A DNA stretch of 64,000 nt from Amoebophrya sp. A120 (Eukaryota; Protista; Dinoflagellata): positions 3,543,723 to 3,607,722 of the forward strand of contig CAJINV010000001.1 of the NCBI GenBank assembly GCA_905178155.1, in the 5' to 3' direction. The stretch's first letter is position 1. Each line of letters begins with the position of its first letter. Below are positions 21,375 to 57,300 of the stretch, piece by piece. The notes under the pieces were generated by a model. The model did no database searches. It saw nothing but the letters and a program-made list of their open reading frames with translations, and was not told where the DNA came from. A program made the position numbers and the translations under genes.

Positions 21375-22243
21375 GTGAAGACTATGGGCTGGTTTGGTAG
21401 CATCTTCGACGTTCTTTCAGGCCCAGCTAATCTTGACGATGGGCGCGACCACCATCAGGAGATTACGCGCTCAGGGGCCCCCGAGTTGGCGCACTTGCAC
21501 CAACAGCAGCTTCCGGGTGCCCGGTCGCGCAACTATCTGGGCAGCCGACGACATCAGCTTTTTTCGCAGGTACAATTGCGCAGTGGCACCAACATCAAGA
21601 CCTCGTTCGGCACGCAGGACGATTACTACTGGTACTTTTTTCCGGATAAAGATCGACAGTCGCTGCTCGAGCGTGTTCCGTTGTTCAGTGAGATTGACAA
21701 TCTCGGTTTCGTGCCGCAGAAGCTGGACTCCATCGCGCGGCAACAGGGTATGTTCAGCGATGGCGGAGAGTTCACGACGTGCTTCCGCCGTCCCCTGGCG
21801 CAGCGCCGCCCCGGCAAGGGCCAGCCGATGGTATATCCAAGCTTTCGGCAAGTGCACGCGGCCGGGTTCGAAACGGCTACGGGGAGCAAGTTGGTGCGGT
21901 ACCTACTGCCGTCCACAACCTATGCAAAGCTTCCCGGTGATCGAGACCGCGCCATCGGGGCCCGATTTAACCAGGGCACGGCGGATTCGCCGGACTGGAT
22001 CTGGTGTCTGTGGAACAATATGCATTGCAAAAGTATCGTACTACGTATAAATTGCATTACAAATTTTCCCAAGAAAAAAACTCAATTTGTCATGCTATTT
22101 CAGGTAGAAATTTGGATTTATCATGCATATCTGCAATTAGTACGAGTGCAATACTTTTGCACAGGATAAGCAAGGTGTACAAGGACGATGTCAAGACCTC
22201 AGACTTCATTCGGAAAGACACACCTGGGCTATGGATACTGTAA
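21375..22243 (+). CDS. Hypothetical protein interrupted by a TIR-bounded intron
   Basis: The ORF from 21375 joins the 22004..22243 frame when 22019-22173 is removed (CLWNKVYKDDVKTSDFIRKDTPGLWIL*). Confidence 0.5.
22019..22168. mobile_element. Introner/MITE-like element 1 (150 nt)
   Basis: Left end tatgcattgcaaaagtatcgtactacgtataaattgca vs reverse complement of right end tatcctgtgcaaaagtattgcactcgtactaattgca. Flanks aacaa/agcaa (5 bp, 1 mismatch). Confidence 0.6.
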
Positions 22244-23117
22244 CAGTGTTGACCGTGTTCACGTGGTGGTACGGCTTTTGCTGTTAATAGCTGCAGACGA
22301 GATCGAGAAGAGAGCTCTCATGTTGTCAGGGCCAGATAATGAACATGAACTGTTGATGTGGACTTGGAATGTTTGCGAGCGAATGAGCCCATTAAAGAGA
22401 CGGCTGTCCTCGGTGGACAGAAGAGCTTCGACGGAAAAGAGTCATACTTTTTTGGTGTCCGTGTTTCATGTCAAATGACCCAGGAGAAGATCGAGCTTCA
22501 TTTGAGTTGATATACTTGTGTTCACCACCAGGATTGGAAAACTTCGGTTCTTCGTGATCGGTCTAGCAGAAGTAGGAACGTGTACATGATTGGGGAACTA
22601 AGAAGTACTGGCTCGACAGGGAAAAAAGTACATCGGTGTCTTTATTTCTGTTGCAACGAGCAGATTGAAGATTATGATTAAGGTCAAGTTCATGATAGAA
22701 GATCGGGCGCTTTGATCGCCGGGCCTGAAACCCGAGCGCACGAATCGCAATCGCGTAGGTGATGTCGTTGTTGCCTTTCATCTTTTAAGTTGTGTCTTCA
22801 AAATCTATCTTCGACCGTTCTAGTACCTGGCTATAATTCTGTGTTTATTTTTGGCAGGACTTGAAGCAACGGCAACGCCCAAGAGACGTCGTTCCCCTGG
22901 TAGCAGATAGGCAATTGACAGTCATTGCAGCTATTGCTATTAGTGCTTGACTCGCTCGGTATTCAGGAAGGCGAAGGAGAGGTCGCACAACGACATAATA
23001 ATTCAGTAGATCGAAGATCTCGCGGCTGCATAGCAGGATCGATTTTTACTTTGCCGAGTGTACAAATACACACACAGGATCGGGTTCTTCTTGAGAAGGT
23101 TTCAGATGTTTTCTTAA

Positions 23118-25354
23118 ATGCCCGACAGGGCTTCCATAATGCCCGAGGACGAAGAGAACAACCCTGTAGTTGTAACTGCATCGGCGGAGCAAGGCGCAGG
23201 AGGCCTCTCACAATCGGAAATGGCGGAACAGGTGACCCCGGAGAAGCCCAAAGACGCAGGAGCCTCGACTTCCGCCCCGCCCGAGGATGCGGACCAAGCG
23301 CCGACGCCGCCGCGCCTGTATTGGCTGGATTGGTGCCGCACCCAGAGCGTGTGGAACGTGGTATGCGGCCATGTGTGGTGGACGATAAGTGACGAGACGG
23401 AGTTCGCGCAGAGTCAAAACGAGACGTACCGGTTTGCGGATTTGGGAAACAACAAGATTCCGAAGCCCGGCAAGGTGTTGACAAACAAGGTCACCGACCG
23501 GGTGTGGAAGAACAACGTGATGTTTAGCAATGTGTATATGACGTACACGAACAACGGGAGCGTCGCGCTCACCGAGTCCATGGCCCGCCAGCGCGAAAAC
23601 AGCAACATGTGGGAGTACGTCGTGGAGCAGGGCACGCTGCACACCATCCCGCTCTTTTTCCTACTGTCCGGCTACATCAGTGCGGCGGTTTCCGGGTTCA
23701 AGGGGCGGAACACAGTCGCTCCGGTCCTGGATCAGTACCTCGACAAAACGCCGGATAGTACCACAGGAGGAGCAGAATTTCCGAAACTCGAGAAGTACGT
23801 GGAAAAGCTGAGTTCGAAGGTGGGCGAAGACGCCTTCCACCACTTTTGCGCCCGCCGGTTCAAGCGGTTGATACTTCCGTTTATTTTCGGGTCCGTGTGC
23901 AGCGTGATCCCCCGGTCTCTGATGCGAGACGAATTCGGGGCGCTCACTGTGATCGAGTCAGAAATGTGGTTCTTGTACGCGCTCTGGGGCTTCGCGTGCG
24001 CCAACTACGCCTGGGGCCAGTACGCGCACTACTACAAGGCGTTATTCGAAATGGACTACGTGAAAGCCGGACAGAGGTGCATACTGGGCGAGGGTACTTG
24101 ATTTTTGAAACCGCAACGTGAATTTGTTCCATTTTTTTTGCAACACTCTCCATGCTGGATCAGAGTTGTTCCAAAGGCTATTTTTGAGAACTTTGATGTT
24201 CATAGAGCAGGTGGCTATGGAAAAAGAAATAAAAACCTAATTATGCATTGCAGTTGCCGCTCCGGCCTCCGATGCTTTCAAAGAGCAGCGTGGAATGGTG
24301 CAAAAGTGGTGCTTGATCTACGGCGTCGTGGCGCAGCTGGTGAACTGGGTGATTCCGGTGGTCGCAAACGTGGTCTTTAATTCGGACGGCATGAAGACCT
24401 GGTGGTGGTTGACGCTGGGCGTCACCTGCCTGATAACCATGGTCCTGCAGTTCTTTGCGCTCTTCATGCTTTCCGGATCGCAGAAGGGTATGCACCTGCT
24501 CGCGACGCAGTGCGTCGTGCTGTTTTCCATCGTGATGTTTATCCCGATGACCTTCGTGCTGGCGGCACCGCGCCTGAAGGAAGACGCCGAGTCGGACTTT
24601 TTGAGCGTGAACATGTGGTTCGTCATGATGCTGTTTGAGATGCTGTACATGTTCGGCTACTTCCTCGCCCTCTTCCAGTCGCACCTGTCCCACGTGCGGC
24701 GAATGCTGCTGCCGAACCACACCTTTGGCGTCGTTATCCTGCTTTTGTCGGCCATATGGCCGGTCGCCACCTTCTGGGGGGCGCGGTCGGCACGACGGGT
24801 CGGGCCGTTTCTGACCTTCTACGACGACCAACAAAGACTCCTTGGACTGCTCAGGAGCTGGCTCTGGATGGCCGTGCTCGCAGGTAAGTAGTTAATATGC
24901 TGGTTAGGTGGAAGGATAAGTTTGTTGCATTGATCTGTTTCGGTTACCATCTGTGAATGCTTTTTTCCAGTGATTTTAGTCTTTCTTTCGCCGTAGTTCG
25001 TTGTGGAATAGTGATATACGCATGGGTCATGTGGTCGTGATTGCGCGGCAAATTTAGCGGACCGAAAATATCCAAAACAAAACAAAACGACCAGCCTTCG
25101 CCTACTATTTCGCAAACGGGACGGTGACACCTGCGGTCCACAAACACATCACGCAGAGTGCAATGGTGGTGTACGTTTTTCACCGGTTCGCTGAGGAGCT
25201 GTGGTTGCGGGCCCTGCTGGAAAAGGACAGCAATCGGGACGAGATTGCCGCTAGCACGATAGTGCTGGTGCTGCTCAGCTGCATGGGGTTATACGCGATC
25301 TTACAATCCAATTGGGTCACCCGACTGATGTTCGGATTAACCAAAATCGCCTAG
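23118..25354 (+). CDS. Acyltransferase family 3 (OpgC/MdoC-like) multi-pass membrane protein
   Basis: RLYWLDWCR, IPLFFLLSGY, RRFKRLILPFIFG, MWFLYAL, VYVFH. Exons 23118-24093, 24254-24883, 25095-25354 (GT-AG, phase 1). Confidence 0.8.
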
Positions 25355-26059
25355 AGGGTTGCATTTCCTGTCTCTCGGTGATTTGCCCCTGGAGAACTGT
25401 CTCTACTAAAAACCTGCAAAGGTTTTTACGAGCGTTTTTTACAACATTATGCGCACTCGTTTTCCACACTACACTACTTATTACAACATTATCGCTTTAT
25501 TTTGTGGAGAAGTTTGAGTGTCACATCGATAAACAGATAATTTTGCTAGTTCATCCTACCCCCGCTCCACAGCGAGCTCCTTGTGTATTAAAGGTAAAGA
25601 CTCATGATCTCGACGCAGACTCTCATTGTAAAGATGGGTAGACTTCTGCCAACCACTTTATGTGACCGCTTGGTCAACATCCCATCTGCCGCACGGATTT
25701 CTAAATGACTCCCCATCCTGTATTTGGCTGTACTGTGCTACTGCCCCGCATCAGACGCAAAAATTGTTCGTGCATCTTCGGGAGGTATTCCCTTATACCC
25801 GTGGGCTTTGATGTCCGTGTTCGAGCCGGTGCAAAATGCCATTTGCAGGAGCTTTCGTTTTGTATAGTAAAGCAAAACAAGGAAAACTTTGATACTCGGC
25901 TTTGGATTTCTTTCGTTAGACAGGTTTCTTGGCTCGCTACAGGAAGAGGAGACGAGTCAGCGATATTACCAGCATCAATTTTGCCGCGGCCTAGGCGTAA
26001 GGCATCGGAGATTGTTTTTTTCCGAAGACAAAACTAACGTGTCTTCAGTCGCCGAAATT

Positions 26060-29000
26060 ATGGAAAGTCGGCGACGATTGCTTCGGTGCAGCAGCACATT
26101 TACCTCGGTCCACATGTGGCAGCTCTCGTGCAGCTTGCGGTTCGTGGGAAAAAAACTTCGCATCATCTGTACTCTTTCTCACCTCCTGCTCCTCTGTCTG
26201 CTGTTTCTTCTCCATGCGGGTGAAGCTGCAGAAGGTAAAAAACCAAGCGCCGAAATAAAATACGGAAATGTGAAGCAGGTGTACGTGGTGATGAGCAGCC
26301 ATTTTGACGAGGGGTACACCGATTTTGCCGTGCCGGTTCTGAACCGGTACTTTCAAGAGTTTTTTCCCGCTGCGGTGAAAACGGTGGAGTTGCTGAAAAA
26401 ACGACACCCGAAAACGGAACACACTCGCAACCCACCACGGTTGGTCTACACCTTGGACGGACCTTGGCTCGCTAGCATGTACCTGCAGGACTGTGCCTTT
26501 TTGCAGAAAAAGGGCGTCATTCCGGGTTTAAGTTGTCCGACGGAAGCAGAGCAGTACCAGTTTCGCCAAGCGTTAAAAGACGGCGACATAGCCCTCACGG
26601 CTAGTCCCTTCAACGCGCAAGTGGAACATGGGAGCGGTTTTCTGTTCAGGTACGGATTAGAGCTCGTGCGGGGCTTGGCCGGTGAAGTCGGAATATCGCG
26701 CAGTCGTGGGCGCGTCACTTTCAGTCAGCGCGACGTGCCCTTCACGACCGTTGCTGCGCTGCCGATACTGCGCGAGTACGGTGTTCGTTTGGTCAGCATC
26801 GGCGAGAATATTTTTTCTTCGGTCCCGAAAATTCCGGCGCCAATTTTTCTCTGGAGAGAAAGGGAGCAGACGAAGAAATTACACGGCGGAGTGAAAGCTG
26901 AACAGGCTGGCCAAAAAAAATCCGACACGGACGAGAATGAGCAGGGATTCGTGACTATTTGGAACCGAAATTATGGGAACTTCGAGCTTCTTCCCTCCGG
27001 CAAATGGGAGTTCACGAGCGAGCCCTTCCTTCTGGCTGACACCGCCTTGGTGATCGCCTTCAAGAACGATAATCAAGGCCCTTTCAATGCGACCGAAGTG
27101 GAGCAAATTTTCGGTGCGTTACAAATCTTCTTCCCGACCGCAGCACGCCTGGAAAACGGGATCGTTTCGACCAGTTACGACACTTTTGCGGAAAAGATTT
27201 GGCCGCGCCGGCACTCGCTTCCCGTAGTTTCGCGAGAAATCGGGGACATCTGGCTTTATGGCGTGCAAAGTGACTTCTTGAAGTCTGCCAGCACACGAAT
27301 CGTGATGCGCGAGGCTGAGAAGTTCATTTGCGGGAAGACCTCGCAAACAACTTCTACAGAAACACAACCAGGTCTAGAATTCGATGACGACGGGGGCGAG
27401 GCAAAGTCGAAACACGACACCACGTCCTGTTTTGACCATTTCTATTTCAGTAAAAGAGTCGCCGACCTGCAAAAAAACGACCCCGCGCTCTGGCATTTCA
27501 TGCGGCTCTTCATTGGCAGCACCGAGCACACCTGGGGGCTAGCAGGTAACGCCCGGGTTGAGGCAGCGAACAAAACAAACTTGTGGAGCAATGCGGGTTT
27601 TGATAACGACCGGAAAAGCAACAAGACCTCTGTCTTCAACGAAGTGGACGCCGCCTACCTAGAACAGCGAAACTTGCACTTGTTCTGGCCGTTGCTGCGC
27701 ATTTTGAAACGGGACGCGCATCCACTGGGGGATATCCTTCTAGAGCGCCTACGAGCTGAGCTTGGGCTCTCCCTGGACGAAGATCTTCACGTCGGAAAAG
27801 GGGAAAGAACAAAGAGAACCGAAGACGCCAGCCAGCTTGGCGGGCCGTCAGGGGAACCACGCGCGAAGATGCTGCCGCCCGCAAAGGACATCTTGTTACG
27901 CGCGGACCTCAACGCGCATTTTTGGTCAGAAGTCACAGTTTCCACCCAATCTGGTGAACTACTACCCGCAGCCTTCTCGGTGTTGATTCCAGAAAGCGAA
28001 TTGTTAGCATCCGGCCACCTCGTACTTCGAAAAAACTTCAAAAAGACTTCAAAGATGAGTTCAGTGCGAGTTCAATACGAACGCCGACAAAATCCTATAT
28101 TTATCATAAAGTCACTTGACCTGTTGCAAAATCGAAGAGAGCCAGCGTTTCTGTCGAAAGTCAGCTGACTTTGCGTGGAGTTTGCAATAACTCAAATGAC
28201 TTTTTGCGGAATTTGCACCAAAAAAAGTCAATTGACTTTGTGCTAATTTCAAGAAAAGCCAAATGCCTTTTCCTGAATTCGGCTCATTTCACAGACAGGC
28301 AGCAAAAGTTTGAAGAATGTGCCCAATTTTTTTGCAGAAGTCAGTTGACTTTTCTGGGAATTAGCATAAAGTCAATTGACTTTTTTTGATGCAAATTCCG
28401 CACAAAGTCATTTGACCTTGCCTGGAAGTTGTCAAAAGTCAGGCGACCTGTGCCCTTTTTGAAGTCAACGGATTTGGGCAAATTATTGAACTCGGATTAA
28501 ACTCGTAATGAGCTCGCTTTTGAACTCGTGCTCCGGTCTTTTTGAAAACTCTAAAAGTACGAGGTGGTCCCGTGCTAAGAATTGCTGGTCTGTTTTGATT
28601 ACCACGGCGCGTTGCGCGGGGTGTTTCAACATCGGGCAACATCGACTGGACGACAGACAAGTACAGAAGGAAGCAAACAATACGAGCCAAAAATCTGCAC
28701 GAATTGTCCACCCGAACTTGAGCCGGGGTACAAAATTGGGCAATATGTTTACCAAGCGTTGAGTGCGGCAAACATGACACAGTTTGTCGAGGAATTCGGG
28801 ACCACCGACGCTTTTGATTTCAGCAAGCCCGGGCTAAAGAAGCATCAAGCAAATTACACAGAGTACTTGCCGCGCGTGCGGGAAGTGATTGTTTCCATCG
28901 ACAGAGGCGGGAGGGGTAGCACGAGCAAGGAAGCAGAAGACGAAAGTGGTGAAGAGGAAAATTATGGGACATCGACCACAAGAAAAAAGAATTCCATCAC

Positions 29001-29880
29001 GCTTGTTTTGGACTGGGCGGTCGACTGCAAGTTGACAATGTCACGACATTGTCTCAGAAGCGACGCGCCTCTTCCATTCGAGGAATACGGGGCGCCTCAG
29101 CAAGTCGTGACGCGTTTCGCAATTTCAATTCCTGAAAGGTTTGACAAGAAAGCGGATACGGCTGCGGAAAAAGCGCACATCAAACAAGACACGGCTGCCG
29201 AGATTAAGCTGGATGTGCTTCTGCAAGACAAAAGACCGACCCGCCTTCCCGAGGTTTCCTGGATTCTGTTCTCTGCGGGGGTTCCTACAGTGCAACAACA
29301 TGGTGCAAGCACATCACGCTGCCGGGGCCGAAAGTTAGGCCGCTACGTGGACCTGTGTGAAGGTGGAGCTGACGACAGTACTATTCCAGGCTCTTTTGCT
29401 CTTGCAAGTCCGCACCAGCACGGAGTTTACAGCGAAAGGCCAGAGAAACATCCCGCGATCGTCTGTGAAAGGACGACCGTAGAGCAGGCCGCCAGTTCTG
29501 ACACGACCTCCGCAAAAGTTAATAGCTACCACGCACTCGGCGTGTCTCCACTGCACACAACACTTGTAGTGTTGTGGGACAAGAAGAAGGAAACGGCATT
29601 ACTTCCGCCCGCTTTCCCGACCCCGTATAATCCACCCGAATGCTCGCCACGATTCGGCTTTGTCATTCACGACAATTTGTGGAACACAAATTATCCAGCC
29701 TGGTACCCGATCGGCGGCCCTTTTCGCGCAGATGAAAAAAGAGACCAAAACCTCCGCGCATCCTGGCAAATTTCAACGCAAATAATCCACGAGGCGGTCG
29801 GGGAAGATGCAGCAGTTCCTGCGGAACGAAAGCTGCTGCCCGACGGTAATATGGCGGACACCACGGCGGTCTTTGTGTAA
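26060..29880 (+). CDS. Secreted GH38-like / DUF5054-type glycoside hydrolase
   Basis: Hydrophobic leader LLLLCLLFLLHA; VYVVMSSHFDEGYTD, RDVP, DNQGP, EIGDIWLYGVQSD, EHTWG, KRPTRLPE, HDNLWNTNYPAWYP. Two exons join across 28004-28584 (PESEL|LVCFDY). Confidence 0.75.
28004..28578. mobile_element. Introner/foldback element 2 (575 nt)
   Basis: Direct repeat gaattg at 27998-28003 and 28579-28584. Ends ttagcatccggccacctcgtactt ... aagtacgaggtggtcccgtgctaa. Internal ~90-bp inverted arms. Confidence 0.85.
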
Positions 29881-30375
29881 GGGATATACTGAGATTAACT
29901 TTAACATCGCCAAAAGCATTTCGCGATTTTTCGTTCCATCTACAAATAAAAGTTTCGTTTCGGACGGATCCTATTATGTTTCCAATGGCGTTGTACAGCA
30001 TCGAGTTACAGGGTTGCGGACCTACAGGGCATTTTCTCTGCCTTCCAGCGTGCGTTTGAGTTAGCACGTATCATGGACATTGTTCCCCACTGATTATAGT
30101 TCTTGAGTATACGAGTGCAAGATGTTCTTGAGGGACACCAAAACATGTCAGTGCGGATTTTTAGCTGAGAATGAGTTTTGTGAGAGTTGTCGTTCAAATC
30201 TATCTCGTCGGAAAGTAGAGAGAACGACACAAACGGAAAAATAAGCGGGCTTACCTCATCAACGTGTCACGTTTCCTTTGTCTATACTAGACTTGCACTC
30301 TCAAGCTACTAGAACTTTAACCACTGGCTCCTTACTGCAAGAAGCAAACCAAAAGTTCAGATCGTGCCTGCAAAA

Positions 30376-31677
30376 ATGTCTTTCTTCAATTGCCGGATTT
30401 GCACCGGTTCGCTTTGGGGAGAGCCGATCAAGCAGCCAGAGCCGAAACCGCGAGCGGATTTGAACAAGGCAGCAAAAAAGCCCGGAAAAGCAAGTATAGG
30501 TCGCATGGTGTGACAAAGATTTAGTTTGTTTTTGATGTAGAGTTGGGCATCGTTTGCACGCAGGCATGAATTGGATCGCCGGTTATGGAGTGTTGCACAC
30601 AAATGTTCCACATCATTCTTACAGAATTCACAAAACGGGATGCGAACGAGATACAGGCAGATTTGGCGAAATGGATCGACTTCTTGCATCCGCGCGCGCT
30701 CTATCAAATGCAAAAATGTCTGGGTCTGGAAGAATGCAAGATTTGTCATGCATATTTCTCATGACCCATGATGCCTGTAATGCATGACCTAGCATCGCAG
30801 ACTTGTAGAGGGCTTCCTGATGCACCTTCCGCATGAGAAATGCCCTGCCCGTGTAGCACAAACTGCACCCCTCTTGCTGGTCATGTAATACAAATTTTTT
30901 TAGATTCCAAAAACAGCATGACAAGTTGCAATCTTCCAGACCCAGACATTTTTGCATTTGATACGCTCGACTTTTTCCCAGACCAGGAGGCTGTGAAGAA
31001 GGTAGGACTGCTGTATAGCAAGTTCGCATGAAGATGAAGCCGTGATAAAAAAAAAAAATGAATATGATAGACTCTTTATCAAGAATAAATCTTGGTCTTC
31101 AAGAAATTGCTGCAACAACTTTCAGGTTTTATCCGAAATCCTGAAGAACATCGACAAGAAGGATGATCCGATTTTGGGGAGCGACGAAAAATGCGTGATG
31201 TGGCACGGCGACTCGACGAAGGTTAACAACGACGGCGAGGAAAGCCAAGCAGTTGTGCGGATAGTCAAACCCGGTATCATTTTTTTGCGACGAGAGAGAA
31301 TGAAATTGAATCAATGCAACTTTCATGCGATAGAGGCTTACTGGTTGTGGTTTGCATGCTGCGTAGCGCACACACTTTCGTCCTTATTTGATTTCCTAGA
31401 GCACCAGACCGGCAAGCAAGGTTGTATCAAAAATTCGACAGGTGACACGCTCGAGAGTGTGACTTTCGTGAACCGCGTGCTGCCCTTCATCTTCGCGGAC
31501 GACGAGTCGTTTGAGGAGCTGATGCAATTGCCCAAGGAGCCCTTTGCCATGTGCTGCGGCAACCAGCTCTGCGTGAACATGTCCCACATCTCGTTCCAGA
31601 AGCGCCGCAACTCCAAGGTGGCCGAAGAAGCCGGAGAGCAGGGCGAGGGAACATCGTTCACCGCACAGGCGAAGTAG
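30376..31677 (+). CDS. His-Me finger (HNH / zinc-binding loop)-like protein, 5 exons
   Basis: Exons 30376-30507, 30657-30701, 30969-31001, 31126-31273, 31442-31677 give ...GRMADLAKWIDFLHPRALDFFPDQEAVKKVLSEILKNID...CVMWHG...FVNRVL...CCGNQLCVNMSHI. Confidence 0.7.
30702..30963. mobile_element. Introner/MITE element 3 (262 nt)
   Basis: Perfect 32-bp TIR tatcaaatgcaaaaatgtctgggtctggaaga (30702-30733 / 30932-30963), imperfect out to ~50 bp. Direct repeat cgctc at 30697-30701 and 30964-30968. Confidence 0.9.
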
Positions 31678-41716: not shown

Positions 41717-44700
41717 ATGCCGCCTAGTATGTTGGATGTTCGTTTAACCATAAAGGTCTTCCTACTGGCCGTGGTAGGACAGCTTGGAGTTGTAGTGACG
41801 AGCAGCGAACCCGGACCTACAACTTTCAGGGTGCAGAGCGCGAGCCATCATGACGGCGCAACTCACCCCGACCCGCGGCAGGGCACACTCGGGTCCCTGG
41901 GTGCAACGATGCAGACCCACGACGCGCCTTTCAACGTATGCTTTGGCTTTTTTGGATTCTTTCAGTTATAATTTTCGCCATCGCAGCTTTTCCAGTGGGG
42001 CGTTTGATTACAACTCGATTTTGAAAGTGATTATGGCGAGGGCGACTCTATTCGTTTTCATGAAATCTAACGAACTATTTATTTGAACCTGAAAACCAAC
42101 CAACCACAGATGCACTTCGACGCTCCGGGTTTTCTGGCTCTGTACTTCTGGACCGGGCTTCTCTTCGTCATCACGCTGGTGTACCGCCTCGTCATGTGGG
42201 GCGCGTGCCGCCGGGACATGGTGCGCGAGCGCGTTTCAGAGAACCAACGAGAGAACCTGCTCAAGCAGGGCTACCAGGACGTCAAGGGGGGCGTGTACGG
42301 AACACTTGCGACCACGTACGCGGCCACTTTTGCCAAGGTATCCGAAGAGGTGATTGACCACGGGGGCCGGAGCGGCATCGTGCGTAAGCAAGTAGTCTAC
42401 CAGTTCGGCTACGGCTACACGTTTTTCGGGTCCGTGCTGTACTTTTTCTACATGCTGTGGCTCTGCGCCGTTTCTGCTACGTTGTTGCTGTGCCTGCTCA
42501 CCGTCAGCATACCCGACCACTTTCTCTGGTTCGCAAACGGCTTCTTCAACCTGTCGCTGTGTCCGGAATCGGTTTGGGACAACATGGACAGGAGAGCGTA
42601 CAATATTGATACCTTTGTTGTTTGGCTTTTTCTTTTGTCTGTGATAAACAACTTTTCCAACACCATTACCATCGTTTGAAACTCTATCTTTTCTTTGAAG
42701 AAGTAAAAAAAGAGGTTTGCGCCGTGGTATTCTATCCGTTTCATCAAATACTTTACCTCAGGCAAAACTGCTCCCTCGGGATGACGGACGACGCCTACAT
42801 GAAGGCCAACCTTGGCGGCGTCTTCCTGATCTTCTTCGTGATTTCCTTCTTCATGTGGTTGCTTTACCTGAAGAACAGCAACGCGATCTTCAACTTTTTC
42901 ATGCGGCAGATGTCGCTCCGCGAGGCCGAGTACGTCTCGATCGAGGAGCGCATCGTGGAACAGTCGCAAGACGACGCGCGCTACGAGAACGAAATCAGCC
43001 GCACGGTCGTGGACAACGTGCAAGTCATGGTCGAGGACATCAACGGCATTACCTACCGTTATTTCGTCTTCCAGTCCACGCGTCTGACCTACGACCACAC
43101 CGCGAAAATCTTCGCTGCGCCCCGCAACGAGGTGGTGGACCGGAACACGCTGAACGCCCTGCATCTGTACAAGCAGGAACCTCTAACCGTCGATGCTGTG
43201 TCGGTGGATATTCTGCTGCGCGGGAAGAACAAGATCGACGTGCGGGTCCCGAGCTTCTTCTGGTTTGCGGCGCAGGAGCTGGGGAACGCGGTGAACCTGT
43301 GGCAGATTTTCCAAGCCGTCACGCTCGCGTTCTTCTGGCAGGTGGCCGCGGGCGCCGTGCTGTTCTTCGTGTTCCTCATCCAGCTCTACCTCGCCGCCAT
43401 GGCGCGGAAGCGCGTGATGCAGAACGTGGAGCAGACGGCGCGGATCCAGGGGATTCGGTTGCTCGTTTACCGGGACGAGCGCCGGGACAAGTACCTGGAA
43501 TTTGGAAAACCCGTGGACATGTCGCGGATGGATTTGAACCGCCGCGCGAACCAACGGGACACGCGGCACCCGACCTTGTCGAAGATTGTCGAGGCGGACG
43601 ACGAGGAGTCCGAGTCCGAGGGCAGCTCCATGTCCGACGGACACATGCTGCAGTCCAGCGGGGGCCACAAGAGCGACAACACGTTCACATACATCGCCGA
43701 CATGAAGGTATTAAGACCTACTTTGCCGTTTTCTAAAGTTGTGGATTTTGATTAAGACCTTAGGTTAGGAGTTTCAGTTTGTGTTTAAGCGCTTTGTTTC
43801 ATTCTCTATCATTCAAACACAACTTCTCAGAATGGGAACGCGCAGGCCAAGGACGCGCCAAAGGATGCGGACGGGGCTCTTGCTTTCAAGCGGCTGAATG
43901 CGGGCACTGGCGCACTTGCCGCGGCCCGAACGGGGACCAGCACTCCGTCGACCTCTGCCGGCCCCTCGCGCGACAACTCCGACAGCAATAGTGAGGAGGG
44001 CGACCGCGGGCTGCAAACGCTGAGCGGCATCCAGTCCCTGAACGCGCGCTCCAAGCTCCGGAACGGTACGTTCCGCAGCGTGCACTCGGCGGAGCTGGTC
44101 CCGGGTGACCTGATCGAGATCCCGGAGGGGGTCGTGATCCCCTGCGACTGCGTGTTGCTCGAGGGCCACGCGCTGGTGAACGAGGCGGATCTGACCGGTG
44201 AGCCGATGCCGGTGACCAAATACCCGATCGAGCGCCGCGGGCGCGCCGCCAACGAGGACCGGCTGGACGTGGTCGCGCACGGCAAGAAGCACTACCTGCA
44301 CTGCGGAACGACGGTGCTCCAGTCCCTCGGTTCGCAGCGCAGCAAGCGCAACCTGAAGGCCATCGGGCTCGTCGTGCAGACCGGTACGGCGACCATGAAG
44401 GGCAACATGATCCGGCGCATTCTGTACCCGAGTCCCGTGTACTACCGGTTCACCGACCAGCTCGGGCCGTTCGTGTTCACCATGGTCTTTCTGCTGCAGC
44501 TCGGCTCGACGATCCCCTTGCTGGTGTACGGCGCGAACGACGGGCGGGGCTTCTTCCAGATCCTCGTGATGGCCTGCTTCGAGGCGATCTCGCTGTCCAC
44601 GCAGGTCGCGAGCCCGCTGATGCTGCTCGGGCTCACCCAAGCGCAGCAGAGCGCTGCGGACCGGCTCAAGAACTCCCCCTCGACCACACAGACGCTCTCC

Positions 44701-47700
44701 CCCGAGCGCATGATCATGGCCGGGGAGATCAAGGTGCAGTGCCTGGACAAGACGGGCACGATCACGGAAGAGGGCCTGCAGCTCCACGGCATCCGGCCGG
44801 TAACCGCAGGGCTGCAACCGTCCTCCTTTCCGGCCGCCCCTCCAGCGAGTGGGATGAACACTTTTCTCGAGGACTCGAACCCCAGCAGCCAAACGCAAAC
44901 CACCCCGCCGATCAGCCAGGGGGCCAACTCGCACTCGTCCTCCGGGTCCTTCTCGGACAGCAACTCTGGCGGCGAGGGGTCCGCGGACGCGCGAACCACC
45001 GCGTCCAGTACGAACAAGGCCAACGCGCGCGCCGCGAACAAGATCTTTGAGAAGAAGTTCGAACCGCTGAACCGCACGTTGGCGGAGAGTCTCCACGGCC
45101 CGACCGTGAAGTTTGGCCCCCTGGTGTCCGTGCGCGACACCCCGGACCAGCCGATGGACAAGGCGAACCTGTTGGAGGTCGCAATGGCCACCTGCCACAC
45201 CGTGACGAAGGTGGACGGAAATCTGTACGGGAACTCCGTGGAGCGCGAGATGGTGCGGGTGCTGAACGTGGACTTCGCCGCCCGGATCGGCGAGGGCGTG
45301 GAGTACTTCCGGCCGAAGCGCCACCCCGGCGGCGGCGAGTTGCTGTTCAAGACCGTGCGGCAGTTCGAGTTTGACCAGGGCACGCAGATGCAGTCGGTCG
45401 TCGTGGACATGCGCGGCGAAAACGCCCGCGCGCGCGGCGCGCGGAACTCCCGCTCCAACGACAGTGCCTCCTTCCGGTCCGGAACCTCCTCCGACGCCTC
45501 CGTGCACAGTCACCGCAGCAGTTTGTCCACGGGTTTGTCCTCCTCCCTGTCCGGTACGGGGTACGGCCGCTCCTCGCCCCAGCACTCGCACGTGCTCTTT
45601 TCCAAGGGCAGCTTCGACGCGATCTCGAAGCGGTGCCTGCCGCACACACTTCCGGTGGACGCGGAGCAGCTGACGAAGTCCCTTGCGGTCGAGGGGTACT
45701 ACGTGATTGCCATCGCGTACCGCCCGGTCGACGAGTCCTCGCAGAACAAAGCGAACGGGCAGAAGGTCGTGCGGTGGCACACCAGCTCGCGGGTGGATCT
45801 CGAAACGGACATGATCTTTCTCGGGCTGATCTATTTCCTGAACGAGCTCAAGTCCGACAGCGCGGCCGCGATCGCCGAGCTGCGCCACGGCAACGTCGAC
45901 CCGGTGATGCTGACGGGAGACAACCTGTGGACCGGCATCCACGTGGCGGAGAAAGTCGGGATGCTGCCCAGGAACGCCGTCATTTTGGGCGCTGACGTGG
46001 AGAAGATCCTGGACCGCGAGGGGCGCCGGAACTCGAGTAGCTTTCCCGACGAACTGCACTGGCAGTTCTTGCGCAAAACGGACAACAAGCACCTCCCGGT
46101 CTGGATGAACCTGCTCGCGGAGCCCGGGGCCCGGTACAGCTCGCGCATCTCCTTCTTCGGTACCGACGTCACGGGCCCGTCCGCGGCCGAGGCGCGCAAG
46201 CGCACGGGCAACGGGGCCTTCTACCGGAAAAAGGGAGCCAGGTTCGGCGGCGCGGGCGCGGCCTCGGACATCGAGCTCGAAGCGCACACGTCGACGCTGT
46301 ACCCGACGCGTGGCGGCGAGCCGCCCGTCTCAATCGCGCAGGCGGTGAAGGCCACGCAGGAGGGTGCGGTCCACCTGAGTCCGTCGCCCATGTTCTCGCC
46401 CACCAACCGCAGCCTACTCTTCGAGCACTTCTACTTCGACGGTCAGGGCGTGGACGACCGCAAGTTGCTGCGGCTCATCGAGCAGATGGAGCTGTTCGCC
46501 GAAACTATGGAGGACAACGGCCACGCAGCCATGGTCGTGCCAAAATACAACTCGACTGCTCCCGCGGCGCCGACGAACGCGCTGGAACTGGCGGGCTTGT
46601 CCGATGCTGACGACTCCATCAGCGACGCCTGCGAGTCGGAGAGGCAGCGACTGCTCGACCGTGACCTGGACGTGGAGGGCGGCGCGTTTCCGACGGCCCG
46701 GTCGCTCCCGCGCGTGAGCGCGCAGTACCGACCGACTCTGCTGTCCAAGGAGCTGCAGGCGGCGGCCCGGAGCGACGACGAGCACGAGTTGAAGGCAGCG
46801 GTGCGCGCGCCCGTCGCGATTAGTTCCAAGCGGCCGAAGTACTACTTCGCGCTCACCGAGGCGGCCTACCGGTTCCTCGCAGACCACGATCCGCGGTTGC
46901 TGGAGAAGATCTTCCCGCGGGTCATCGTGTTTGGGCGCATGACGCCGAACGGCAAGGTCGACGTGGTGCGCCGCACCCAGTCCACCGGCATGGTGGTCGG
47001 CATGTGCGGCGACGGCGGCAACGACTGCGGCGCGCTGCGAGCCAGTCACGCCGGGGTGGCACTCGCGGACGGCGAGGCCAGCATTGTGGCGCCCTTCTCG
47101 TCAACGTCAAAGTCGCTCTTCGCGGTGGTCGAGACGATCCGCCAGGGCCGCTGCTGCCTGCGCGTTTCCACCGCGCTGCTCGAGTTCCACGTGATTGTCG
47201 GCATTGCGTCCGCGATTTTCAAGGTCGCAATTCTGTCGCAGAAGGCGTACCCGTCGGAGCTGATGTACCTGCTGAAGGACTCCTTGGTTCCCTGTTTGAT
47301 CGTCACTGCGCTGGTCGCCGCCACCCCGCCGCTCCACCTCGGGTTCAAACGGGGCGGCTGGTGCAGCTGCTGCCGCCGCGAGCAGTGGGGCACGAAGAAC
47401 GGGATGTGGCTGATGTTGGACAGCGAGCGGCCGACCGGCAACCTGATCGCGAAGCCGCGGCTGTTCCTGATCGTGATGGCGGGTTTGATCTTCGGGTCGT
47501 TCGTCTACCTCACCTGGTTTTTCACCACGTCCACCATCGCGAACCCGTGGTACCACTCGATCGACCTGTACGCTTTGCGCGGCGAGGGCCAGCTGATCGC
47601 CCCCTGGACCAGCAACCTGCTCAGTCCGGTGATGATCGGCGCCATCGTGCTGTTCAGCTTCGTGGTGTTCGTCACCGTCTCCATCGACGGGAAGTTCCGC

Positions 47701-49269
47701 AACAACGTGTTCAGCCAGTGCTGGGTGTACCTGCTGTTACTCGCCGTGTTCGCGCCGGTCTTGTTGATCTACTTCATGTGCAACTCGCCGATCCACGCCC
47801 TGCTCCGCACCAACGTGGACAACATGCACTCCTGGCAGCACGCGTCCATCACCGCCCCGGCGACCCGCGCCGTCGCGTTCTCCAACGCGGACGTGCTCAG
47901 TCCCAACTTTTGGTTCACCCGCCCGGACGCGTCGCTGTTCAGCGGGCAGGAGGACGTGTTCTCCTACGCTTTGAACACAGCGGAAAGCTTCCCGGACATC
48001 AGCACCCCAGCCCCGGTCCACTGGTCGTCCGGCAGTAGTAGAGTGGGCGCGGAAGCAGCAATGGAAAATGAACAAGGTGCCGAGAGTACGACAGCGGCTC
48101 GCAGCAGCAGAAAGGCCGCCGGCGCGCAGAGCACGCCGCCGCCGAGCGACGCGCGCGGGGAGGAACTGTTGCAAAGACAGGTCGACCAGGCGGACAAGTT
48201 CATGCACAACGAGATGAGCGCGGCGCTGACCGGGTGGCGGGCGAACTTGCTGACCAAGATGGACAAGGGCAGTGAGCAGACCGCCATGTCCGCCACCGAT
48301 TTTCGGGTTTTATTCCCCGCGGTCGGCGGCGGCGCCGCCACCCCCGCGAGCGCGGTGATGGTGGAAGTGAAGACGGATTTCATCACGCAGGACGCCACGG
48401 TGAAGCAGTGGGTGAAGAGCCTGCACGAGGCGAGTCAGGTCACCTTCGCGGACCTGCGGGTGTCGCGCCGCAACAAGGCGTTGGAGCCGCTGCCGGAGCC
48501 GCAGATGATTGCGGACATCGCCGCGCACGCGTGCCAGAAGATGTGCGCCGCGAGCTGGACCGCGGGCCGGGGCCAGAACGTGCCGGACCGCGAGCGGTTC
48601 TACTGCTGGTGGGTGGCCGTGTCCGCCGAGCGGTGCGTGCTGATGCCGCGCACGGACGTGGGCACCACCGTCGCCCTGGGCCCGGACTACTTCAACTACG
48701 TCTCCACGGAGCTGCTGCCGAAGCACAGCGGGGTTGGCGTGGACGCGATCTACAACACGCCGAATTTGAATGTGCAGGTGGTGGGAGGAGGTACCACTAC
48801 CAACAACGCCGGGGGGTCGTCTTTGGTCAACAACGTGGTTCTGTACCCATCGAAAGACGCCCAGGAGCCGTTCACCGCCTACCAGCTGAACCGGCACAAC
48901 GTGCTCTCCTGGCGGTCGCAGAACTACAAGAGCGAGGGCGGCTACGACGACTGGCTGCAAGAGGCGCTGCCCTCCTTTTACCCGCGCCAGGATTTCTACA
49001 TGCCCCGAAACGGCTTCACGGACGACCACTCACGGTGGTTCCCGGAGGTGTACGAAAATTACCCGGCCAGCTTTGTGCCCTCGTTTTCCATGGTGTTCGC
49101 CGGGTTCGTCGTCGTGCTATGCGCTACGATGGGCTTCCTCACCTGGCTGGTGCTCAAGTTCTGGGCAATAGGCTACGAGCCGCCGCACCGGGTGCACCAG
49201 TTCCACATGCGCGGCGCGCCGATGCCGCCCAGTCCGGACTCGAACACGTCTGGGTCCCCGCTGGAGTAA
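41717..49269 (+). CDS. P5-type (ATP13A-like) P-type ATPase, 4 exons
   Basis: ELVPGD, PCDCVLL, NEADLTGEPMPVTK, CLDKTGTIT, SKGS, MLTGDN, RMTPNGK, MCGDGGNDCGAL, ASIVAPFSS. Exons ~41717-41935, 42110-42597, 42762-43707, 43831-49269. Confidence 0.9.
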
Positions 49270-49891: not shown

Positions 49892-50063
49892 CATTGTAGC
49901 GAAATTGAATCACATTTACAACACATTGCAAGAGCCTGTGCTTGCATCTTCTAAAAATTCCTGATGTGACATGATCAGCAGCTCCTGGAGCTGCATGATC
50001 ATCTCGTGTTCGTACGGAAAAACAAATGGCAACTAGCAGCAAAGGCCTGGTTTCCTCATCGAG
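49892..50063 (+). repeat. Upstream copy of a degenerate direct repeat (partner 51791-51952)
   Basis: cattgtagcgaaattgaatcacatttac...gcaagagcctgtgcttgcatcttcta...ttcctgatg..catgatcagcagct...gtgttcgtac is shared with the downstream copy. Confidence 0.8.
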
Positions 50064-50287
50064 TGTGGTCAAAAAGCAAAACGTATTGTGGAGAGGCGAT
50101 GAAAATTAAGCAGGAGTGCAAGCGTGCCAATTATCAGGGTTGCATCAATCGCACGCAAGATACCGATAGAGCTATGTATTGGATCTATCATCATGTGATA
50201 CATAGAAGTGCGACTGCGAGCGCGGGAGAGAACAACGCACGGAGTGCGGTGTAGATCGACAGAGTAAAAAACGTCACCGGCACGACA

Positions 50288-51781: not shown

Positions 51782-51790
51782 TGCCTTGGG

Positions 51791-51952
51791 CATTGAAGCG
51801 ATATTGAACCACATTTACGTACACCACATCGCAAGAGCCTGTGGGTGCTTGCATCTTCTAATTCCTGATGCGGCATGATCAGCAGCTGCGTGATCGCGTG
51901 TTCGTACTGTCTAGAATGAAAAAGGTAACGCTAGAACTGGCATTTCCATCGA
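51791..51952 (+). repeat. Downstream copy of the direct repeat (partner 49892-50063)
   Basis: Starts 10 nt after the stop codon of 50288..51781 and is colinear with the upstream copy apart from indels. Confidence 0.8.
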
Positions 51953-52073
51953 GCGGGATGGCGATGTCGTATGCTCACCAGATTTCAAGTAAACGTATTT
52001 CGGAGCAGCGATGGAAATTCAACAACAACATTGCTGTTTGTAGGAAGAAAAATGTGCCCCGCCCCCGTCCGTT

Positions 52074-53594
52074 ATGGAGACCGGGGTAGTGCAAGCGAGC
52101 TCCCGGCTCGGCTGGGTCGCGCGGCTCTCGACGATGGGCGGGCGGTCTTCGTCCACGAGATCAGCTGGGTGGTCTGATCATTCCGCGGCAGTCGTGGCCA
52201 ATGACCACCAGCAGTACGCCAGAGGCAGCTTCGGAGGTCCACATACAACTCGGACTTCGAGAACTTCCTCGCGGGCGGGCAGCGTATCAACAGGGTATCC
52301 CCTGTTCTCTTCGGTCGGCGCTTTCTTTGATGCCGTGCTACTCAAAATCCGCGGGAGCGGGAGGGCGGACGGGCAAACAATCAAACTCTTCCAGAAGCGA
52401 AAAGGCAGCGCAGGTAAGGCAGTTTCAGGACTTTATCTAACTGGCTCGCATCGTTCATGAAAAGCGAGAATTCGCGCTAGCGAACTTGGTTCGTTCTACT
52501 TTGATTTTGCTGCTGTTTCGAGCATACGCTTTTTATGATGATGCTTGAACTTATCGTCATCGCATATATACTTCGGATTCGCAGACTCGGTGCGCTCCTT
52601 CGGGGCAGGGGACTCCGGAACATCAAGCGCAGACACCAGTAAGCAAAGTGACTCTTTCGACATACCGCTGCCGCGTCTGCTGCGCGGAAACGGGCTTGAC
52701 TGCGCGACGGTGAAATTTCAGGCCTTTAGCTTTCGCCTGCCAGAGACGCCCGCACCGAGACGGCGGTCGAGCCTCGGTTCCATTACCAACAGCGGAAATC
52801 TCAAGGAACCGTTCGTCGCACCCGTGGGCGAGGCTTTCGAGCCGGTACTCGTACGCAGTGTTGTTGGGCACAAACAATGACAAGATTACAACAATGTCAT
52901 AAATTTCTCTTTCTTCTCTGAAGTGTGGCCCTTGGATGTTTTTCTGTCTGCGTACGAATTTTCATATTCATTTTGTGCTTTCTGTTTGAGTAAAAACACG
53001 AACTCCTCGTCCCAGGCGCGTCGCGGTCTGCAACTGGACAAGCAGCGGAACCTGTTCCAGGTGTGTTCCACGAAGTCCGCTGTCTTTCGCCGCGGCGCTT
53101 TCGAATTGTACGTTCTCGCCTTCGAGAACACCCGTTGGGTCGCGCTTACCGCCACAAAGCAAAACGAAGACACGGACCACTTTCTGATCGAGGCCACCTG
53201 CAAGCTGTGGACACTGCGGCGCAAAACGCTCCTGGTTGAGGCGGTGAAGAGCAAGGCGCTGCTGCTGTGCGTGCAGCTTCTCGAGGACGACACCCGCTTG
53301 ATCAAGCCGGATGAGGACGCTGGTGCAAACGGAGGAAAGATAAAGTTGCCGTGGCCGGAGTCCCTGCCCGAATGTCCCGTCTTGTTGCCCGCTGTCGGAA
53401 CTAAGCTGAATTCGCTGGGGTCCGTGGACGAGAAGCGCCGCGGGTCCTCCACGGGCCCCGGTCCCATGGACTCGGTGCTTCAGCAGCGCCGGCGCAGCTC
53501 CACGGGTTTGGATCGGTCCGCGCTGCGCCCGACATTGCAACAAGCGGAGCAAATGTTGCTCACAACTCGCTCGGGAAGCAAGGGAAGAAGGTAA
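52074..53594 (+). CDS. Hypothetical multi-exon protein
   Basis: ORF pieces 52074-52412, 52584-~52843 and ~53016-53590 can be joined by GT-AG introns. A strong donor (ag|gtaagt) at 53591 leaves the 3' end unresolved. Confidence 0.4.
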
Positions 53595-54398
53595 GTAAGG
53601 AACAGTAGTGCACCGCGTCCGCGGGTGATGTTGCACCACATGTAGCCATTTGCCACAAATGAACTTGCAAAAAGTCAAATTGTGGTACGCATGACATACA
53701 AGTAAAAATCGCACAGTCGCGCGGAAGACGTCCGGAAGCAAGTGAAAGTTGCCCCCATTTCTGTTTCTGAAACAAAGAAGTAGTTGTGAAGATACTTACA
53801 TCAACATCATTTCATAGTACTAACTTTGCGGATGCTATTGCTAGCTAATGCTGGCTTAGTTCGAAGGTTCCTTTGTGGAGCTGTGGCTCTCGTTGTCGTT
53901 CCGAGATTGATCCGAGCAGGCATAGGCATGCGCATGATGTACGCATGCTCCTTTAGTATTACAGATCCATTGTAGTAGTTCTGTTCAGCCAAGCATATGC
54001 GTATGCGAGCGCGGATTCGGCAGCAACGATAGATCCATCCATGATCTCAGATTAGAGAAAGTGAGGATCTTTCTGAAGATCCTTCTGGTCCTTTCCTAAG
54101 CTGTTGTAAAGCTGTAGAGATATTTTTGTCTCTGTTTTTGTTGATCACTTTAACTTTTCACGCTAGAGTACAAGAACGATTTTTGGTTTGTTTACCGCAT
54201 TTTTTTGTCACCAGTTTGTGAATTTGTGTTTCTATTTACTGCAGTGGTACGGGAGAAGTAAGTTAAGCTTAAGAGCAACTATGGGCCTCATGAAGAAAGC
54301 GCCGCAGTGTTTTTACATTTTTGAAGAGTAATACCTCTTGTAAGAAAGTAGTCACTCACTTCTTGCCTTTTTTCTTCATAGGGTAGCAGAACAGTATC

Positions 54399-57300
54399 AT
54401 GGAGGACGGCGGCGCCGCGCCCCCGGAGGCCCCGCAGCCGGGCGTGGTGGTGGCTGAGCCAACTGGGCCGTCCACCGCGAGCAACGACCCGGTCGCGCCA
54501 GCTGCAACAACGAGCAACGACCCTGCAGGGTCTGGTGATGACCCGATGGCGATGGAGGTCGAGCAGGACGACGCAGGTATGCAGCAGGACCCAAGTGCGG
54601 TCTTCAGCGCCCTGGATTCGCTCGGGCCACCACAGGGTTCTCCGCCGCAGGGGTCACCGAAACTCGACGCAGCCTTCGAAGCGATGGGGATGACCATGGG
54701 CATGCCGGTAAAAAGATGACACGCACAAATGATGTTGCAGCCGCTCTGTATGTATTGTACATTGTTATCTTTCATATTTCATTGCATGGAGTCATCAACA
54801 TTCGCATCGCGGCTGATCATGTGAAATCCGTCTGTCATGCGCCACCACTCTGTTGTATAACTACAATCGCACATCTTACAGGTCCAACAAGACTACGCCC
54901 GGCGCGCCATGCACCCGATGAAGGTTTCCTTTTACGAGTTGATAATTCGCCAGCTCGCGGACGATGAATTTCTGGACGAGGCGTTGTCGCTGAAAAATCG
55001 TTCCGGGTTGAAAGAGGCCGGCCACGTGGAATCGAACTGGCTTTTCCGTCTGTACGAGGAGAATTTTGGCAAGCACTTCAGCGACCAAAACAAGTGGACC
55101 GACATGGGGCTCACACCCATGCCTAAGCTGGAAAGCGGGGAGAGGTGTCTGGACGTAGAAGAGCCGAGGTTTGACCTAGACGGCTTGGACAAAATAACCT
55201 ACACCGACAGTTACAAAAACGTCATCGCTGACGACGATCCGGAAAGTATAGCAAAAGGCGAGGGGAAGGGGCAAAGGGACGGCAAAGGTAGAGGAGTTTT
55301 TGTTCATTAGCGAAGGAGTTTTATGAGATTCATCTTGGAATGTGTCGACGGAGTGCGGAAACTAGAATTTTGATGAGAACAGACACAAAATAAAACCTCC
55401 AGATCGGGACGGAAAGGACGCCAAGGATCATCAACAAGAGCCCCCCGTTGCCAAGGCGCGACCCCTTCACAGGAAGAAAGCAAATATCTTCAATAAAGTC
55501 CATTACAACACGGCGCACAAACAGATGGTGCGAGCAGTGGCTTTTAGTCCGGACGGCAGGTGCAACTTATGTGGCGCTTTTTGCGAGTCACAAATGACTT
55601 CGAAATTGTTTGTACTTACGGCGAATGTAACCGCGATTCAATCATTTGAACGATCGATCCACGATGTGCGAGCAGCAGTCCAATGTACAACTTCCGTCAA
55701 AACAGGTTCGCAGCGAGCGGAAGCCACGATACCACGGTGAAAGTGCTGGACGTCAACAAAATGTTTCACTACGGGTCGCAAAACGCGGGCGAGAGGCGTG
55801 ACCAGGGGTCCGATGTACGACCCGTGATGCGCACCCTATACGACCACCAGGGCCCGTATGGGAGTGTCAGGATCGAAATCGACAAAATCGAAAAACTTGT
55901 GATGCAGAAAATGTAGGACACTGAAGGCCTGTATTGGGGAGCTGGCAAATGAGACAGATTGTAAGCCTGTTTAGGGTAAGACGCTGTGCTGTCAGAGTAG
56001 CATGACAGGAGCAGTCTTCTTTGCCGTAACAGCATGACAGACTGGATTTTGGTGCTCTCGAAATTTGTCATGCGCCACTTGGAAACTGAGGCTCCAACTG
56101 GTATCTTTTTATGCATCACAAATCATTTCGATTTTGTCAATTTCGATTCTGATGCTTCCATAGCCCGGTGAACTCCCTCTGTTTCCACCCACATCTCGCC
56201 TACCTCTTCACCGCAAGTGCCGACAAGACCGTGAAGGTCTTCGATCTAACTCGCCCCCAGACGCAATTGAAGTCCCTATCCAGCATCCCCGATAGCAGTA
56301 TGGTCCAGACCATGGCAGTGCACCCCAGTGGCGACTACCTCTACGTCGGCACCGCCCACCCGACAATCCGGCTGTACGATCTCACAAGGCTGGAGTGCTT
56401 CACAGGCCCAAATCCCAACGACGTACTGCTTCATTCGTGTTGCGCTGATCTATTTTCATTTTTGGCGACGATTGTTGGGATGTTATGTAGACATTGGCAG
56501 TTTTGTTCCATATGATAAATGTATCATCATAAAATATCAGTACCACACCGGTATGATAAACGACCTGGCTGTGACCAGCGATGGCAAGGTTCTGGCATCA
56601 GCGAGCTCGGACGGTGAAGTGAAGTTGTGGGACGTTGTCGCCAACCGAGTAGTGAATAGCATGAGCAAGGCACATCACGGCGCCAGCGTCTGTAGCGTGA
56701 AATGGAGCAGAAACCTGAGGTAGAAACGCGGTTCAGTAGTCTTTTTGATCTGCCCCCCGCTAAGCATTGGGATGCTGTATTGCTAAGTTTGTTTTCGAGC
56801 TTTCCCTTTCTCATTTTTCACTCATCCACAACCACATAAAACAGGTATTTCCTTACCGCGGGTTGTGACGGTAAAGCAAAACTTTGGGATGCCCGAAAGG
56901 GAGGCAACGAGCCGGTCCACAATATGAATGTTTGCGCCGCAAGGAATCTCGAGTACGCGCGAGCAGCCTTCATCGGCCAGGAGCGTTTCATCGCTGTGGC
57001 GTCGTCTGGGAACGACCTTTGCATTCTCGACGCGCAAACTGGAGAATACCTGCAAGGAGGTATTTAAACTGTGACTCTTTTTCTTCTTGCGATGTGCTGT
57101 TACTCATTTTGTCAAGAAAGACACGAATAGCTGCATAGGAAAACAAGGGCAACTACGAGTCACCATACCAACATAAAGTTTGGCGTGTTCGTTGCTCTGA
57201 TCCCTGTTCCCCAACGTTAAATCAAAATTTCTCATCCCTTGAAAACAGCGGTAGCCCGTGGCGGTTACCACCACCACACCTCCCACCACCAGCACAGCAA

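Follow-up and report, generated by a model that had tools for sequence, protein, structure and literature searches.

Exonic inverted-repeat elements of Amoebophrya sp. A120 and possible routes of their excision from transcripts

How can an element with long inverted arms, lying inside a coding exon, leave the transcript if not at GT-AG splice sites? The question is raised by four elements, E1 to E4, on the forward strand of a 64,000-nt stretch of contig CAJINV010000001.1 of the dinoflagellate Amoebophrya sp. A120 (hereafter the window). We find that E2, E3, and E4 are absent from assembled transcripts together with exactly one copy of the short direct repeat that flanks each of them. E1 is likely absent as well, judging from the end of a transcript contig and from orthologs.

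Transcript joints and host genes

The transcript evidence comes from X1, X2, and X3, three of four contig runs that stem from a single sample and carry the flag "RNA?". Among the runs listed as matching the window, none is on record as RNA; the contigs used here lack the ordinary GT-AG introns and are therefore transcript-derived. Assembly drops rare forms, and the independence of these contigs from the published annotation is not assured. E3 is bridged by a joint from 30696 to 30964 (X1 and X2), with 267 nt gone, which is E3 plus 5 nt. The joint at E2 runs from 27997 to 28579 (X1 only; 581 nt, E2 plus 6) and that at E4 from 55851 to 56163 (X1 and X3; 311 nt, E4 plus 5). The E4 joint shares a single contig with six GT-AG joints, and such ordinary introns in the same contigs bear out an earlier reading made from the letters of the window (the sequence-only reading), which had placed this removal beside normal splicing. 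In the DNA-type run X5, in which the host genes stand at ∼25-fold depth, there is no such joint among the matches listed, and long contigs run into the elements.

For E1, an 827-nt transcript contig matches 21327–22015 without mismatch and leaves 138 nt over, which fits a 155-nt skip. The host frame (21345–22243) encodes a small conserved Amoebophrya protein, for which no Pfam family was found. Its orthologs in A25 and AT5.2 (P0001 and P0002) are colinear with it over the skip up to a shared C terminus, and their alignments score 547–550 with the 155-nt skip vs. 440–455 for the alternatives. The upstream and downstream copies of the E1 repeat (22014–22018 and 22169–22173) differ by one mismatch, at position 2. 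The mismatch-free piece of the contig ends at 22015, and the orthologs carry Asn or Asp there; the upstream letter is the ancestral one and is retained, and the downstream copy would lie within the removed part. A protein search at 123–394 aa returned the A25 and AT5.2 orthologs and no A120 protein; the public A120 annotation may lack this gene.

Over the four skips, none of 23 registers gives GT-AG. Several in-frame options went unused: a GT…AG pair at the edges of E4 (55856–56163; 308 nt), which would add one residue, where the contigs show the 311-nt skip; a GT…AG pair at E1 (22010–22164; 155 nt); and, at E2, removal of the element only (575 nt). Retention of an element puts a stop in every host frame, for E1 only at the right edge. 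An in-frame stop had earlier been assigned to each element, which holds for E2 to E4; the E1 frame is open through the element, and its stop (22167–22169) straddles the right edge. The claim of the sequence-only reading that removal of an element plus one repeat copy restores the protein is supported by the joints at E2 to E4, by their departure from GT-AG, and by colinear orthologs, and none of the findings that it had named as speaking against it (retention, use of nearby GT-AG sites, single-copy ends) was made.

The E4 host (54399–57709; six GT-AG introns plus E4) is the WD40 protein CstF-50, a label confirmed by human CstF-50, which is colinear across E4: Its residues 51–100 and 105–186 match the exons on either side, and the four residues between are accounted for. 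The E3 host (30376–31677; 203 aa, interrupted by E3 and by three GT-AG introns) encodes a conserved alveolate-type protein. For this protein 141 homologs were found, and 83 of the 96 that cover the junction align gap-free. The His-Me-finger label proposed for it survives as a lead: Atlas clusters with PF05551 on 25%–67% of members, and Pfam searches gave no His-Me-finger match. In A25, the orthologs of these two genes, the hosts of E1 and E3, carry gene numbers that lie close together (32 and 28).

The E2 host frame (25874–29880) is GH38-N-like or DUF5054-like and has 1141 residues when E2 is spliced. Its last 664 residues are identical to the A120 protein GSA120T00012727001, which assigns the window to A120 and means that the public annotation already treats E2 as an intron. 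The first residue of this public model is residue 478 of the frame, and the GH38-N-like part (25874–27304) is left out of it; a transcript contig reaches upstream to 26769, beyond the start of the model. The earlier label of glycosidase is likewise a lead, resting on the GH38-N likeness (Atlas 0.95), with a weak match to DUF5054.

Anatomy and kinship of the elements

E1 (22019–22168; 150 nt), E3 (30702–30963; 262 nt), and E4 (55857–56162; 306 nt) have TAT…ATA ends and arms of ∼24 (imperfect), ∼50, and ∼55 nt, respectively; E2 (28004–28578; 575 nt) has TTAG…CTAA ends and arms of ∼25 nt. These boundaries are the ones first proposed. Over the first 20 nt, 16 arm positions are identical in E1, E2, and E4 and all 20 in E3. 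A flanking direct repeat had been described for each element: It is exact at E2 (6 bp; 27998–28003 and 28579–28584), E3 (5 bp; 30697–30701 and 30964–30968), and E4 (5 bp; 55852–55856 and 56163–56167) and imperfect at E1 (4/5).

A strict scan of the window (arms of at least 16/20, an exact 5–6 bp repeat, length 80–1000 nt) gives four matches, namely E2, the palindrome inside E2, E3, and E4, whereas every one of 20 block shuffles gives none. When the settings are loosened enough to include E1, the scan gives 28 matches vs. a shuffle mean of 20, so the anatomy of E1 alone is within chance; anatomy aside, the reality of E1 rests on its orthologs and family copies. End-to-end folding goes beyond that of shuffles in all four elements (z = −5.0 for E1, −15.8 for E2, −13.5 for E3, and −6.3 for E4). 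Self-alignment of the window for whole-element palindromes detected no element beyond the known ones and missed E1 as well, and an Rfam search of the window returned no matches. The internal palindrome of E2 (28192–28415; 224 nt) contains repeated AAGTCAATTGACTT-like units, and the TTA ends of E2 partly resemble the A25 motif.

The description of the four elements as unrelated has to be given up for E1, E3, and E4. Besides the TAT…ATA ends and 5-bp duplication already recognized as common to these three, they share a subterminal word, TT(G/A)T(C/G)ATGC, which lies at 30743–30751 (+) and 30916–30924 (−) in E3, at 55897–55905 (+) and 56113–56121 (−) in E4, and deeper inside the element in E1 (22087 and 22118). 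They also have more 9-mers in common than shuffled sequences do (the count is reached in 0, 1, and 0 of 300 shuffles). E2 has no such sharing and is separate from this kin group.

In X5, 86–114 contigs leave the ends of E1, E3, and E4 with foreign flanks (114 at the E1 end 22019 and likewise 114 for E4), and some pass from one element end via 22–40 nt into the next element. E2 stands at a depth of 119–134 vs. ∼27, a few copies only. High copy number thus applies to E1, E3 (very high), and E4, with their many foreign flanks and family copies, and not to E2. One X5 joint links the E3 5′ arm (30755) to the E1 3′ part (22131), which suggests chimeric or mixed-arm elements. At a likeness of 90% or 82%, the raw RNA runs X9 and X10 match element sequence only and none of the host genes, and are therefore uninformative on splicing. 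In X9, 131 reads lie on the E3 3′ arm (30915–30963), 72 of them with one common foreign flank; these point to an abundant RNA, perhaps from a different strain, that retains a copy of the E3 family.

Related loci were collected from metagenome contigs with an exact 31-nt E3 arm as the query, which yielded at least 125 loci (the 80 listed being one record set) and favors the E3 family in all family counts. Full-length family matches in 125 loci among the matches listed, with overlapping loci counted separately, are 131 E3-like, 43 E1-like, 14 E4-like, and no E2-like. We detected 320 elements in loci among the matches listed, falling into 39 clusters, 15 of which have at least two members. Within the first 60 nt, where 0.04 occurrences per arm are expected, T(G/A)T(C/G)ATGC is present in 168/214 and 64/82 arms of the two E3-type clusters and in 10/16 E4-type arms. 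It is found in 2/72 E1-type arms, and several small clusters have none.

TAT…ATA pairs collected without regard to their flanks number 597 in loci among the matches listed. A perfect 5-bp repeat flanks 249 of them, vs. at most nine for each of 3, 4, and 6–9 bp, and many pairs without a 5-bp repeat are cross-pairings. Long TAT…ATA pairs, considered as coding copies, turned out to represent nested inserts or cross-pairings; no transposon domain was detected in four frames within them. The duplicated bases are unbiased in sequence, so cut sites inside the duplication can have no consensus. Single mismatches between repeat copies occur at all five positions (5, 7, 3, 4, and 6 by position); 11 of 19 are synonymous, and they are too few to fix the register. 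Coding continuity results from removal of the element plus 5 nt at 113 of 320 sites, vs. 16–22 for out-of-frame removals. Removal of the element plus 2 nt leaves the same frame and gives 110 of 320; reading frames by themselves hence do not discriminate between a loss of 5 and one of 2 nt.

Orientation relative to the gene is evenly divided. A codon model gives 23 elements in the same and 23 in the opposite orientation, a count from which every unassigned element and 10 rows whose strand calls conflict are left out. A long-frame method gives 114 junctions in 42 frames (28–42 junctions in controls), and retention would break 114/114 of them. Among the 61 junctions that could be oriented, 30 have the same and 31 the opposite orientation, and one family occurs in both orientations within 8/42 frames. 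At locus L063, an aldo-keto reductase domain spans an E1-type copy of opposite orientation, the upstream match being weak (E = 0.03); Pfam gave no strand confirmation for L067, L001, and L038, which leaves L063 as the one locus with homology support. The orientation results on related loci rest on frame restoration in metagenome contigs. The sharp 5-bp duplication and, judged from frames, the family copies in both orientations within restored frames are additions made here, and the latter suggest that orientation may be irrelevant.

At L036:957–1306, L012:3185–3549, and L077:1699–2089, inserts of 310–370 nt without inverted ends are nested inside TAT…ATA elements. These have 12–19-nt flanking direct repeats; two are related, with repeats that contain the CATG core of the subterminal word. 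By look, they resemble short interspersed nuclear elements. At L056:233–5627, a gene that contains two internal repeats is split by ten elements within 6 kb, its exons measuring 18–60 nt; a homolog search intended to identify the retained repeat copy at positions 1, 2, and 4 gave no match.

Within the window, the four host genes and the long frames checked at 15340–62486 are all on the forward strand. Pfam matches there are ankyrin repeats (15340–20592), an acyltransferase-like frame (23121–24098), and a P-type ATPase (43792–49266). In the 11 GT-AG introns (24094–57248), the 20 nt before the last three bases have a composition of A 0.44, C 0.23, T 0.25, and G 0.08; this A-rich 3′ region without a polypyrimidine tract may bear on acceptor recognition.

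Possible routes of excision

The descriptive part of these results (anatomy, copy number, joints, lack of a GT-AG register, and restored proteins) we regard as very nearly certain. The elements are likely non-autonomous DNA transposons. For the way they leave the transcript, we favor a machine that is guided by the terminal stem, and not by GT-AG, and that cuts them from pre-mRNA; to this full mechanism we give a probability of about 0.5. E1, E3, and E4, as one superfamily that is probably integrase-related, would owe their insertion to a DDE transposase whose cut is staggered by 5 bp, and E2 to one with a 6-bp cut. On the pre-mRNA, the arms would pair and bring the two repeats together, and both cuts would fall within the repeats, outside the stem. 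The mismatch at E1 would bracket the cuts at 0–3 nt before the stem on the 5′ side and 2–5 nt after it on the 3′ side. Since the cuts would lie within the repeats, the sequence before insertion would be rebuilt, and insertion would be nearly harmless in either orientation. With a duplication of random sequence and a reversible interior, only the arms could mark the intron. By analogy, the catalyst may be a putative Euglena-like, U1-independent route; Farhat et al. (2021; PMC7789003) did not find U1 in A120, which is counted as support for such a route.

The elements might instead be removed as lariats by the core of the major spliceosome (U2/U5/U6), retargeted to symmetric signals in the arms after loss or divergence of U1. 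A120 has nearly all spliceosomal proteins together with U2, U4, U5, and U6 (Farhat et al. 2021; PMC7789003), and Fritillaria is reported to use the U2 spliceosome on introns derived from MITEs (miniature inverted-repeat transposable elements; review PMC11282704). The shared word also stands at a branch-site-like distance of ∼41 nt from each end of E3 and E4, and one register per skip ends in AG or AC. However, these registers differ, lying one base into the repeat for E2 to E4 and two for E1; the duplicated bases are random; few E1-family arms contain the word (2/72, first 60 nt), and E2 lacks it; and a good in-frame GT-AG pair at E4 is ignored. We consider a retargeted spliceosome a possible but rather doubtful explanation. 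Improbable, in our judgment, is a loss of the elements before or during transcription, with the polymerase jumping the template hairpin by realignment of the direct repeats or the DNA being excised in an unsampled life stage. This would agree with the loss of exactly one repeat, 5 or 6 bp, despite shorter in-frame removals, and with the upstream copy kept at E1, and repeats that are identical and not complementary are more easily sensed via the template than on RNA. Yet the X5 DNA holds the elements, with no joined form among the matches listed, and there is no shortage of mismatches between repeats at their 3′ end, at which pairing would be required for realignment (5, 7, 3, 4, and 6 by position). 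RNA-type runs moreover contain element sequence of these families, so copies are transcribed.

Least probable of all, and very unlikely, is that the joints are reverse-transcriptase template switches over a hairpin with direct repeats, the real mRNA keeping the element or using other sites. A hairpin with a direct repeat is a known signature of such switches (Parada 2014), all the RNA evidence presumably comes from cDNA, and the main text of Farhat et al. (2021; PMC7789003), in the parts covered, contains none of the terms "template switch," "artifact," and "direct RNA." But assembly yields the skipped form alone, with the depth of the whole gene (46.8 and 260), and at positions 55943, 55992, and 56027 of E4 the window's own letter is in no X1 contig. 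Retention would also put stops inside conserved proteins, including CstF-50, whereas orthologs are colinear with the skipped form.

Several points weigh against the stem-guided machine that we favor. The RNA evidence comes from contig assemblies of a single sample bearing the flag "RNA?" and not from reads, the E1 joint is deduced from a contig end and orthologs, and the orientation results rest on frame restoration. Symmetric arms of 50 nt could carry the same spliceosomal signals both ways. A fixed stem ruler leaves the loss of 6 nt at E2, vs. 5 elsewhere, unexplained. In a first pass, an inverted repeat could be recognized in just 30% of A120 non-canonical introns, the majority having none (Farhat et al. 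2021; PMC7789003). Finally, no transposase-coding copy was found among 12 candidates of at least 400 nt in 383 kb, a very small part of the genome.

The loci nonetheless add testable constraints on the excision mechanism. E4, with its ignored GT-AG pair, is a built-in control; E1 brackets the cut sites through its repeat mismatch; and E2 shows that the removed repeat can be 6 bp. A broader proposal is tentative, and we lean against it: that a second, spliceosome-independent mRNA splicing machine removes any terminal-stem element plus exactly one duplication, whatever its orientation and regardless of GT-AG sites, and thereby allows one integrase-like TAT…ATA superfamily (15 or more families with shared ends, many with the subterminal word) to flood coding exons.

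Comparison with known systems

Because this class of element has been published for Amoebophrya A120, the present finding rediscovers a known system. Introners in A120 and A25, 29,850 of them in A120, were reported by Farhat et al. (2021; PMC7789003), with their mechanism unresolved, and it is well supported that E1 to E4 belong to this system. They lie in the same organism and are, like those introners, non-canonical introns with inverted and direct repeats; the RNA-supported ends outside GT-AG are found again at the E2, E3, and E4 joints and indirectly at E1, and repetition in the genome at E1, E3, and E4, with only a few copies of E2. Both ends of E1 and E3 carry the motif described for A120 (TAT followed by seven bases and at least three A); E2 does not, nor does E4, which lacks the A-run. 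The arms of 24–55 nt compare with 8–20 stated there, the 5-bp repeats agree with the legend of Figure S19, and the 6-bp repeat of E2 exceeds the 3–5 nt given in the text. That paper ties a 6-bp repeat and TTA ends, as seen in E2, to A25. Its text, in the parts covered, has nothing on orientation, unused GT-AG sites, or a subterminal word across families. More widely, we found no statement in the literature on the orientation of Amoebophrya introners; figures and subscription papers beyond the texts covered may hold one. Gozashti et al. (2022) allow for opposite-orientation insertion in general.

The sequence-only reading held both the excision mechanism and the transposase to be unresolved, which stands for the mechanism (PMC7789003); for the transposase, a Ginger-like lead for elements with TA/TA termini and 5-bp duplications is in print (Gozashti et al. 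2025; PMC12130899). That study lists 58 A120 introner families, most of the 21 covered here being "TIR DNA, Unknown" (TIR, terminal inverted repeat) with mixed splice sites. Its family 38, "Ginger, 5-bp TSD, TA/TA termini" (TSD, target-site duplication), has arms of ∼50 nt, and its main text describes an element without the termini and duplications expected of Ginger. Family 38 measures ∼810 nt and has integrase-like homology, whereas E1 to E4 are non-coding. Families 17, 21, and 100 match the elements in size, which gave no identification. The integrase-related IS3EU/GingerRoot and IS481EU elements (PMC10045372, PMC6839031) have TA…TA or TNT…AYA termini, of which TA…TA is found in E1, E3, and E4, but their duplications are usually 6 bp, or ∼4, 15, or 25 bp, in contrast to the 5 bp seen here.

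As in MITEs, the elements combine a target duplication of fixed length and variable sequence with inverted arms and no coding capacity. Spliceosomal introners carry or co-opt GT/GC…AG ends, which the skips at E1 to E4 do not have. Those of Micromonas and Aureococcus are reportedly elements with TIRs and a target duplication, whose spliceosomal ends come from arm plus duplication; in E4, a GT-AG pair of this kind is present and goes unused. Aureococcus introners reportedly also insert in both orientations. The MITE introns of Fritillaria resemble E1 to E4 as elements with TIRs and a duplication turned into introns, but have spliceosomal ends (review PMC11282704).

The nonconventional introns of euglenids (PMC12501133, PMC11282704) are like E1 to E4 in the pairing of their ends, in direct repeats along which the joint can slide, and in their occurrence beside GT-AG introns. 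They differ in their CAG/CTG code, which the TAT…ATA and TTAG…CTAA ends do not follow, and in Euglena circular products are known (PMC12501133, PMC11282704). Should a separate machine be at work in Amoebophrya, it would be a second case, beside that of the euglenids, in which splicing of nuclear mRNA neutralizes transposon insertions exactly.

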